Assembly: GCA_964016885.1 (NCBI GenBank)
Contig: OZ024747.1
Span: 13,454,001-13,518,000, forward strand
DNA: 64,000 bases
Origin: Eledone cirrhosa
Lineage: Eukaryota
Direction of reading: 5' to 3'
Numbering within the stretch: position 1 is the stretch's first letter; every line of letters begins with the position of its first letter. The position numbers and the translations under genes were made by a program. Shown here piece after piece: positions 45,501 to 48,500 of this stretch. The notes beneath the pieces are model-generated. The model was not told the origin of the DNA. It was given only the letters and a program-made list of their open reading frames with translations, and searched no databases.

Positions 45501-48500
45501 GGCGCTGAGTCTTGCTGCCACACGTACGGCCTACCTGCAGCTACCTAGTCGATCCAGGGCTTTATTACCTCACTCAGAATGCGGATGTAGCCATCGGTGT
45601 TCAGCTTGAGGCCCTCAGGGAAGAAGTGAGGTGGCATGATGTCACCTTGACTGCTGATGACAACTAAGACCGATGTTGTCACTGGAAACTTTGTCTGCAT
45701 GACTCTGGGCACATCATTGGATGAGACAGCGAACCACCTGTTGTTCTGGGAGTTGATCTTCTGGTCTTATTTGTCCTCCCGGCGCGGATTCCAAGAAGAA
45801 CTCCGTGTCTCTTCCACAAATTTGGAGGTTCAAAATTATTCATAATCAATTATTCTGAAAATAAATAATGGAAATATAGTCACTGTTTTTATGAAGACAA
45901 GAGTGACAATGGAAGTAAAAAAAATTTGTATTAAATTTTTTCCATTTATATATATATATATATACGCAAGGGGAAATCCGACGTGTGGCTTATGTATCGA
46001 CGAACGAATAACTATTCTAAAGAGATTACGCAATAATGATTGCCTAAACACAAGAAGTGAATTTTTCACACATTGTCCACACGTCGCCAAACACCTATTA
46101 CATAACTACAAGGCTCCGGACTGATTCTTTGTAATTTTATTTTATTTTCAACCTAAAAACTTTTCGTACTTTCGCAGTTATCTCCCTTACACCTCTCTCA
46201 CGCAGTCTAGTATTGCCTGTGTGAAGTGATCGGGTTTCTGCATATGCGCGTTCGTACGGTTGTCCTTCCTGTTCCTATAACCATACACATCCCGAGCTGA
46301 AGATCCGCTAAGGTGAAACAATTGTACTCGGTATGGTGAACTAACTGTTGTGTAACCACTTCTACCTAACTCATCCCTTGGACTGAGTGCTCTACCACTA
46401 CGGATATTACCTTCCAGTGTTCCACCACTATATATATATATATATATATATATATATATATATATATATCATTATCATCATCATCATCATCATCATCATC
46501 ATCAACGTTTAACGTCCGTGTTCCACGCTTGCATGGGTTTGGACGGGGGTAGTCCCACTTGAGGCAAGAGTGGTTGTCTTGCTCGCATAGGACTGTCTGG
46601 CGGGTTTTCTACAGCTGGATGCCCTTCCTAACACCAACCACATTTACAGTGTGGGTCTGGGAGGTTTTTACCGTGTTGCCTACACGGCCACATTACAGCG
46701 TGGACTGTGTGTTTTTTGTCGTGACACCTACACGATCTCATTTGTTTCGGCCTGGATGTTGTGGCACCAACATAACTTTACATTGAAAGGGGCGGTGTGG
46801 ATGGGGTGGAGGTGGTGGGACGGGGGGGGTGTTTTGTTAGAGATGCCTATATATATATATATATGTATGCTCTGTGATGTTGCATTAGTACAATTATTGG
46901 AAATTATCCTGTGAATATAACCTTAGATACACTAGCTCCATATGATTGTTGATTATAATAACACATCAAATATTTGATCACCTTTCTGTCCCATGATAAA
47001 GTAGATCCCTCTACTTATTAAACTTTGTTCATATATATATATATATCAACTAGAAATAGATTGACATATATATATATATATAAAATAAACACATGAAACA
47101 ATCAGAGGGGATTCTACGATGGAGATGGCGCATGTCTCGGACATGACACCCTTAATTTAATTTTGGATATATATAAATGTTGAGGCACGTGGCCTAGTGG
47201 TGAGGGTGTTGGACTTACGATCATAACATTGTGGGTTCCATTCCTGGGTTACATGTTATAATCTTGGGCAAAACATTTCATTTCCCGCTGTTCCAGTATA
47301 GTCAGCTGAAAATGAGTACCAGCCATAGCTGGGGGGTTAAACCCTGCGATTGACTGGCGTCCTGTCCAGGGGGAAGTCTTTTACTCTCAGTCGCTTCAAG
47401 CCATGAAACCAGCTAAATGAGCCTTCTGGCTTAAGACAGACTTTAGACTTTATATATATATATATATATACGTTATTCCGGGTTGAATCGGAGGTAACCA
47501 CAGTAAGTAAGGTACTCAATACATTGCAGAGTATAAAAGTTTTAATATAGATGAGATTCTACAGGACTAGAACTGTTTCATTCTTTAGAAATCATCAGGA
47601 TTCCTGATGATTTCTAAAGAATGAAACAGTTCTAGTTCTGTAGAATCTCATCTATATTAAAACTATATATATATATGAAGGCACATGGCTTAGTGGTTAG
47701 AGCATTGGCCTTGCAATCGAAAGGTTGTGAGTTCAATTCTCAGACCGGGTGATGTGTTGTTTCCTTGAGCAAGACACTTTATTTCACATTGCTCCAGTTT
47801 ACTCAGCTGTAGAAATGAGATGATAGGGACTGGGGTCCCTATCATTCCACTGTAAAGTGGTCATGGAGGTGCCACGGTAAAAAAGCACCCAGCACTCACT
47901 GTAAATGAGGTTGGTGTTAGGAAGGGCATCCAGCTGTAGAAATCAAGCCAAAATGATATCCGTCCCACCCTTGCAAGCAGGGAAAAGCAGACGTAAAAAT
48001 GAAATGATGAATGATGAAAATGATGATATATATAAACACAAACTGGCATAGTACTCAGAACTTTCTGATGCTAGCTGATATTATCACTGCATCATTCATC
48101 AGCCTTTGTAGAAAGGTGGGTGTGTGAGTTTGTGTCCATAACTTGAAAAATATACAGTTATTGTGCTAAACAAAGGTAGCGAAATGGCAAGAGATTCAAA
48201 CATGGGATTAAATGCTTTATTCTATTAATTCTGGCTCTCTGTACTGTGAGTTCAAATCCCACTTTAATTTGCCTTTCTTCTTTTCAAGGTTGATAATCTA
48301 TTAACCTGATGGAGCGAATCTTCCTCTATCTCTCTTTCTCCATCCATCCATCTCTATCTATCTGTCTCTCTCTATCTATCTGACTAACTATACCTCCCTA
48401 TCTATCTATCTACTTACCTACCTCCCTATCTGTCTGTCTGTCTGTCTACCTCTCTGTCTATCTATCTATCTATCTATTTACCTACCTCCCTATCTATCTA

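Follow-up and report, generated by a model that had tools for sequence, protein, structure and literature searches.

Predicted hammerheads in the mobile elements of Eledone cirrhosa most commonly carry U opposite U at the base of stem II

Introduction

In the window analysed here, a stretch of 64,000 nucleotides from Eledone cirrhosa (assembly GCA_964016885.1, contig OZ024747.1, positions 13,454,001 to 13,518,000, forward strand), several hammerhead motifs carry U10.1 opposite U11.1 at the first position of stem II in place of a G-C pair. In the hammerhead structure, the sheared A9-G12 pair is stacked on this first pair of stem II. A first-pass annotation had singled out four of these motifs, assigned them to four unrelated families and proposed that the apposition is a selected, clade-specific core variant rather than decay. 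The question raised by the locus is whether U-U is indeed kept as a family feature, in which elements it resides and what it may mean for self-cleavage.

Results

Hammerhead motifs of the window

A descriptor scan of both strands of the window returned ten core-like matches, eight with T..T, one with G..C and one with T..A at positions 10.1 and 11.1. The T..A match at 15282 was taken as chance, and U stood opposite U in 8/9 hammerhead cores (Table 1). After block-wise dinucleotide shuffling (100 replicates), the CTGAnGA form occurred 0.07 times per window and the T..T form not at all. Several matches come in pairs, one on each arm of an inverted repeat, so that the eight T..T matches represent only four families, which we named by core: F1 (46297, +), F2 (31827, +), F3 (47604, +) and F4 (12099, -). 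All four motifs of the first-pass annotation were recovered, the minus-strand position 12054 being the low end of the motif with core 12099. The motif at 21713 keeps G-C, as had been stated, and was the sole G..C match in the scan. Among the best 150 of 221 Rfam matches in the window it was also the only hammerhead, with 29.1 bits (E 0.0047) and thus below the gathering score of 34; no U-U motif was present among them.

F1, F2 and F3 possess the type I core (C3 U4 G5 A6 N7 G8 A9 with G12 A13 A14). An A15.1-U16.1 pair followed by H17 is found in all four families, as GUA or GUU in F1-F3 and as CUU in F4, and a three-way junction of stems I, II and III with covariation is indicated by the descriptor matches (reversed control 0) and by stem II covariation. 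The Watson-Crick pair at 10.1-11.1 is missing, with U-U in 7/7 family representatives, which does not disqualify the motifs since a published natural exception cleaves. The cut sites put forward earlier, 3' of 46326 (F1), 31857 (F2) and 47642 (F3), fit the NUH register as predictions. Minimum-energy folds did not contain the full hammerhead; with z-scores of -0.72, -0.46 and 0.32 they are uninformative either way on the fold. The window copies of F2 and F3 lie inside long perfect hairpins and are likely sequestered there.

Table 1. Hammerhead-related features of the window and of further loci (L and G prefixes).
Feature	Position	Strand	Details
Second F4 fragment	4047..4121	-	CAGAAGA/U-U motif, C3 at 4116; descriptor scan, sequence comparison
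F4 Hydra-type element, 3' end	11923..12105	-	98.4% identity to 3' end of ORF-bearing L165 copy
F4 hammerhead	12105-12054	-	CAGAAGA (U4 to A), U-U, 3-bp stem II, 4-bp stem III, CUU triplet
F4 hairpin	21415..21656	.	inverted-repeat arms 21520-21587 and 21589-21656
Canonical G10.1-C11.1 type I hammerhead, separate repeat family	21707..21751	+	Rfam RF00163
Inverted F2 retrozyme insertion	31531..32052	.	250-nt arms, 98% complementary; U-U hammerhead per arm (cores 31827+, 31756-)
5'-truncated copy of Hydra-type Penelope-like element F1, flanked by (TA)n	45962..46429	+	91.8% identity over 497 nt to L088 3' end
Last 52 codons of F1 GIY-YIG endonuclease (CxxC..E ... CxH)	45966..46121	+	tblastn 87% to L074, E 1e-24
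F1 type I hammerhead	46280..46337	+	core 46297-46303, U10.1 46304, U11.1 46314, GAAA 46315-46318
F3 terminal-repeat hairpin fragment	47466..47664	.	U-U hammerheads 47604+ and 47598-; 96-97% identity to L288
T..T cores	21587, 31827, 46297, 47604	+	descriptor scan
T..T cores	31756, 47598, 12099, 4116	-	descriptor scan
Recurrent F3/F4 inversion junctions	window 21588, 47601; L013, L014, L207-L211
310-nt U-U retrozyme arrays	L164 4471-6641, L165; G000:C1:5388712-5392664

U-U is the family norm of the focal F1 motif

The F1 hammerhead combines a 2-bp stem II with an internally looped stem I and a palindromic stem III (46318-46325) of the dimer type; at position 17 the family norm is U and the focal copy has A. 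It is located 175 bases downstream of the last GIY-YIG endonuclease codons, and in a full-length copy (L088) hammerheads at 280 and 2857, 2,577 nt apart, flank the ORF. To the F1 pattern with 10.1 and 11.1 left free there were 3,003 genome matches; among the 100 listed, 92 had T..T, eight had one changed base and none had G..C. U-U is hence the F1 norm and not a stray state among G-C copies, which bears out the earlier view that it is not decay. DNA contigs, which may stem from the source sample itself, showed common variants against the focal copy at N7, in loop 2, in distal stem I and at H17; those above 10% included N7, loop 2 and H17, and none was at 46304 or 46314. The 5' ends of F1 copies do not cluster at the predicted cut (at most 2/30), and a cluster at -32 to -34 is partly a matter of subfamily differences in loop 1. 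A search for F1 among sequencing runs listed no RNA run, an outcome that is neutral as to expression.

Dynein heavy chain exons were recognized on the plus strand at 13065-13250, 27826-28038 and 54414-54599 (Pfam AAA_8, MT and AAA_9). The hammerheads at 21713, 31827, 46297 and 47604 sit between these exons; the F1 motif, which is intact, has the orientation of the dynein gene's sense strand.

F1, F3 and F4 reside in Hydra-type Penelope-like elements

The region of locus L288 that matches the F3 fragment of the window is situated upstream of a 758-codon frame, and in 10/14 loci the F3 hammerhead lies just upstream of this frame. Its stem III has four base pairs (monomer type). According to Craig et al. 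(2021; PMC8557442; cited here, like all published work, for the sections covered), the Hydra clade is defined by RWK-like, DKT, CxCX5C, CxxC and CxH motifs. The CxCX5C linker and, at the C terminus, a GIY-YIG domain with CxxC and CxH around conserved E and N are present in F1 (L085), F3 (L288) and F4 (L171). RWR and DKT, corresponding to the N-terminal motifs, were found in F1 (L088) and F3 (L288), the F4 piece stopping outside this region. As to the further cysteines of the clade, inspection by eye gave none in F1, one in F4 and two, widely spaced, in F3. F1 is short (<3 kb, as measured in L088), and the elements carry hammerheads in their terminal repeats and insert at (TA)n. Protein identity is 37% between F1 and F4, 38% between F1 and the F3 piece and 54-56% between F3 and F4 pieces. 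No Pfam family was found for the two element proteins searched; the Penelope-like assignment is based on the protein motifs and on the existence of 499 relatives with a length of about 700 residues. On these sequence criteria F1, F3 and F4 are classified as Hydra-type Penelope-like retrotransposons.

Where F3 and F4 are inverted, the junctions repeatedly fall on short quasi-palindromes that border the hammerhead core on its 5' edge, a pattern suggestive of cDNA snap-back at these sites. Further Hydra-type families were seen in L121 (-, 2049-4490), L127 (937-3327) and L162 (2034-3281). In L121 and L127, a search with a loose CUGA or UUGA pattern that reached 600-700 bases from the ORF ends detected no hammerhead, and none was linked to the ORF in L162; these families may have different variants of the core, or their 3' regions may be long.

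F4 has a CAGA core

In F4, U4 is replaced by A. The motif has 22,516 exact matches in the genome, and the core reads CAGAAGA in 95/100 among the matches listed. The other five read CTGA; each of the three that were inspected sits in the centre of a hairpin, its T having been created by the inversion. The same occurs in the window, where the inversion junction at 21588 converts CAGA to CTGA on the plus arm of the F4 hairpin (core 21587). We considered that CAGA itself might be a junction artefact and rejected this: CTGA is the artefact and CAGA the family norm. Outside hairpin junctions only 231 F4 copies have a base other than A at position 4, and among the 100 matches listed the non-A bases are spread over C, G and T in the manner of point mutations. 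Stem I has five proximal pairs and, beyond an internal loop, a distal part of at least 7 bp. The hammerhead is found about 1 kb downstream of a third Penelope-like ORF with frames of 713 codons, many copies of which share 95-98% protein identity. None of 30 F4 copies has its 5' end at the predicted cut, and a diverged A4 sister lineage, which would be proof of constraint on F4, was not found among the sequences examined.

Other core variants were encountered as well. A repeat family with a U3-A8 core swap and G-C is present at L157, L085, L087 and others, and one U3-A8 copy with U-U was seen among the sequences examined. A CCGAAGA core (U4 to C) with long stem II and palindromic stem III exists in two copies (L140 4759 +), and at L104 3345 there is an A-A motif whose stem I has 8 bp.

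The tandem retrozyme F2 has a G-C sister

F2 consists of non-coding units in tandem, each with a single type I hammerhead with palindromic stem III, at a spacing of 422-538 nt; its insertion in the window shares 71-85% identity with tandem units in L165/L162. An ORF of its own was considered and rejected, the ORFs beside F2 belonging to F4 and to another element. By its non-coding tandem units with one hammerhead each, F2 qualifies as a non-LTR retrozyme, with units longer than the 170-400 nt published for this class. A 466-nt sister retrozyme carries G-C, and its units are homologous to those of F2 (local score 160 versus a shuffled maximum of 42). Among 100 matches listed of 38,545 for the sister retrozymes, 54 had U-U, 45 G-C and one C-G. 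The families are thus related, and the pair alternates between two states. The description of F1 to F4 as four unrelated families does not hold: three are Hydra-type Penelope-like elements, and the fourth is this retrozyme with its G-C sister.

Another tandem retrozyme, of 310 nt, has a U-U hammerhead with a CGCG palindromic stem III and occurs in head-to-head arrays.

U-U is the commonest form at genome scale

In the 3.0-Gb assembly a loose U-U pattern had 111,118 matches (reversed-pattern control, 9,884) and a loose G-C pattern 39,039 (control, 2,114); these patterns ignore stem pairing and leave out CAGA cores. The full type I descriptor was applied to a sample of 59 evenly placed 10-kb stretches (590 kb in all). 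It contained 36 full motifs, namely 19 U-U (nine with CUGA, ten with CAGA), 11 G-C and six other, and none in the reversed sequence. U-U is the commonest form among the tens of thousands of predicted hammerheads carried by the jumping genes of this genome, with at least nine stem II types among the sequences examined. It is also found on F5, a non-Hydra element whose endonuclease differs and is of the cysteine-finger kind, and at metagenome locus L160, upstream of an ORF whose protein is 40% identical to that of F1. Yet another Penelope-like group includes two abundant families that have G-C and an extra base.

In an alignment of seven family representatives, which were chosen for having the motif, C3, G5, A6, G8, A9, both U's and GAAA were all invariant. 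The pair 10.2-11.2 was U-A in four, C-G in two and A-U in one, and the pair beyond it G-C in three, C-G in two and U-A in two, with U/U at 10.1/11.1 in 7/7. Stem II gave a covariation score of 0.714 versus 0.170 for shuffled alignments (0/500 as high) and at most 0.286 for slid controls. The earlier observation that stem II differs among motifs while U-U is constant is borne out by these data. Hence we conclude that U-U, being kept while stem II covaries, is a family norm and a feature under constraint. Chance or decay as the source of U-U in F1-F3 is ruled out by the shuffles, the family norm, the genome sample and the contig variants.

Discussion

Both the U10.1-U11.1 variant and the types of element that carry it are already known, so that the novelty implied by the first-pass annotation falls away (PMC3088659, PMC7229834, PMC8557442). 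Perreault et al. (2011; PMC3088659) name it as a natural hammerhead variation and report, citing Ruffner 1990, that U-U allows more cleavage than other mispairs. Their variants share with those of the window the mismatch, its position and very short stems II; what is a rare variation in the sections covered there is the commonest form in this 3.0-Gb genome. The axolotl retrozyme HHR_Amex2 (Cervera and de la Pena, 2020; PMC7229834), with about 60,000 motifs, resembles the families described here in its type I fold, its U-U at the base of helix II and its tandem units. It reached 22% cleavage in 1 h as a monomer and more as a dimer, and circular RNA was detected. HHR_Amex2 is one vertebrate family with units of 350 nt, shorter than those of F2, whereas here at least nine stem II types occur on autonomous elements as well as retrozymes.

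File S2 of Craig et al. (2021) comprises 25 Hydra-clade families in 26 rows, which we tallied as 14 U-U, seven G-C, three G-U and one U-C. The U-U families (ctga.gat ... tgaa) are found in Hydra, sea cucumber and copepod. These elements have the same protein motifs and (TA)n targets as the families studied here. In the sections covered their hammerheads are called canonical, with no remark on U-U, and the sole octopus entry in the table differs in stem II from our families. The minimal Penelope-like hammerheads of Cervera and de la Pena (2014; PMC4209133) are similar in their terminal repeats, palindromic helix III, dimer model and low activity, and the G-C families with an extra base match this minimal type. 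The G10.1-C11.1 pair is described there as highly conserved, unlike in the U-U families here. The sections covered of PMC6155905, PMC6765202, PMC11014351 and bioRxiv 10.64898/2026.07.22.740005 contain nothing on U-U.

What is new is the scale and context of U-U and not the pair itself. More than half of this genome's hammerheads would escape descriptors that require CUGA together with pairing at 10.1-11.1, given that 19/36 in the sample are U-U and ten of these CAGA. The G-C and U-U sister retrozymes furthermore form a natural pair for asking what the position does, and bear on why Penelope-like elements keep hammerheads. The proposed clade specificity stands in part: across four phyla U-U prevails among Hydra-clade elements, but it is also present on a non-Hydra element in this genome, in axolotl retrozymes and among the natural variants of Perreault et al. 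(2011).

We consider it probable, at roughly 0.8, that these motifs are type I hammerheads in Penelope-like terminal repeats and in retrozymes, that U-U is their norm and that they likely still self-cleave, slowly, with U-U replacing G-C. A U-U wobble would close stem II beneath the sheared A9-G12 pair, its cost in stability being offset by contacts between loops 1 and 2. In F1 and F2 the weak helix might in addition be compensated by dimer formation through the palindromic stem III within tandem transcripts. Since their palindromic stem III has two pairs, F1 and F2 would need a second copy to fold, whereas F3 and F4, with four-pair stems III, could act alone. Partial cleavage may then serve to trim tandem precursor RNA to unit length, or to circles in the retrozymes, while most RNA would stay uncut and be copied back into the genome. 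Speaking against a large role of cleavage, the 5' ends of genomic F1 and F4 copies are unclustered, and in vitro insertion of a related anole element was unchanged in hammerhead mutants (PMC11167929). Within the Hydra clade the U-U state is probably old, and sister families alternate between it and G-C. We regard it as a second state that purifying selection tolerates and that involves no new chemistry. As an alternative to positive selection of U-U over G-C, such tolerance accounts for the data equally well.

A serious possibility, although we would put it at somewhat below even odds, is that U-U is a nearly neutral sink, into which A+T-biased mutation erodes G-C and which persists as the sole mismatch that is good enough. 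This would be compatible with the anatomy described above. The window has 30-46% G+C, the cleavage permitted by U-U compared with other mispairs (Perreault et al., 2011, citing Ruffner 1990) agrees with such a sink, and the G-U and U-C states in 4/25 Hydra-clade families of File S2 are as expected of stepping stones. It is less easily reconciled with the retention of G-C-rich stems right beside the pair (C-G pairs in F1 and F4), or with the near absence of the equally A+T-rich U-A/A-U pairs, of which there were 0/36 in the 590-kb sample and 1/36 in a second set.

Positive selection for U-U, which would slow the ribozyme, spare uncut RNA for reverse transcription and have arisen more than once, appears unlikely. 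Genomic copies do retain the whole hammerhead, U-U also sits on the non-Hydra element F5, and the U-U families are the most abundant in the genome. U-U-bearing ORFs require three changes on the ORF tree, but this was a quick version of 48 rows with 40/120 relatives and no named Hydra references, and the hammerhead state is missing for its mostly unlabelled rows, so that the three changes are uninformative on origin. Against this reading, the G-C sister retrozymes amplify too, and the axolotl U-U motif, as a monomer, showed more cleavage than the neighbouring motif of G-C type (PMC7229834).

That the motifs are dead relics carried by successful elements is very improbable on the whole, being unlikely for F1-F3 and plausible for F4: Naiad elements spread without hammerheads, insertion in vitro was independent of hammerhead cleavage (PMC11167929) and F4 joins U4A, U-U and a CUU triplet with no diverged A4 sister lineage found, but the core is invariant though the terminal repeats no longer align, the proteins are 37-56% identical and the stems covary, and F4 keeps stems I, II and III along with its distal stem I of at least 7 bp.

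With regard to F4, a mutational scan of a different hammerhead found little activity after single changes in the CUGA turn (PMC9901934, sections covered). A natural change at core position 4 is known from the U4C viroid variant (Ambros and Flores 1998, via Perreault et al., 2011). The viroid has C at this position; F4 has A, and about 22,000 copies share this A together with U-U as a fixed state. The literature covered, with Lunse et al. 2017 and Perreault 2011 figures lying outside that scope, does not describe a U4A family in nature. There is no CAGA core in the hammerhead table of Craig et al. (2021; File S2), at least 11 of the 12 CAGA occurrences in that supplement lying in sequence files, and a search of the supplements of Perreault et al. 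(2011) gave no match, as far as these were covered and leaving the variant list of their Figure 5 outside. The family with U4A and U-U may hence be new. As judged from its motif, F4 is best called hammerhead-like rather than a proven type I member. It is conceivable, if doubtful, that F4 is a young autonomous Penelope-like lineage with U4A and U-U both fixed in more than 22,000 copies, which still cleaves and is unreported. If so, this natural hammerhead would work although it lacks the CUGA turn, would be invisible to every CUGANGA descriptor and would occur in a genome with U3-A8 and C4 core families as well. An active F4 would widen the known core, and an inactive one would mean that a dead ribozyme does not keep a Hydra-type element from spreading.

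Other repeats in the window

Fragments of the ORF of another non-LTR retrotransposon, which is also present in L047 and L066, were located at 49400-50870 and 58158-58586. Four equal partial tRNA matches of 28.1 bits (33297-33354, 47686-47743, 52183-52240 and 60171-60228) are likely the heads of a tRNA-derived SINE.
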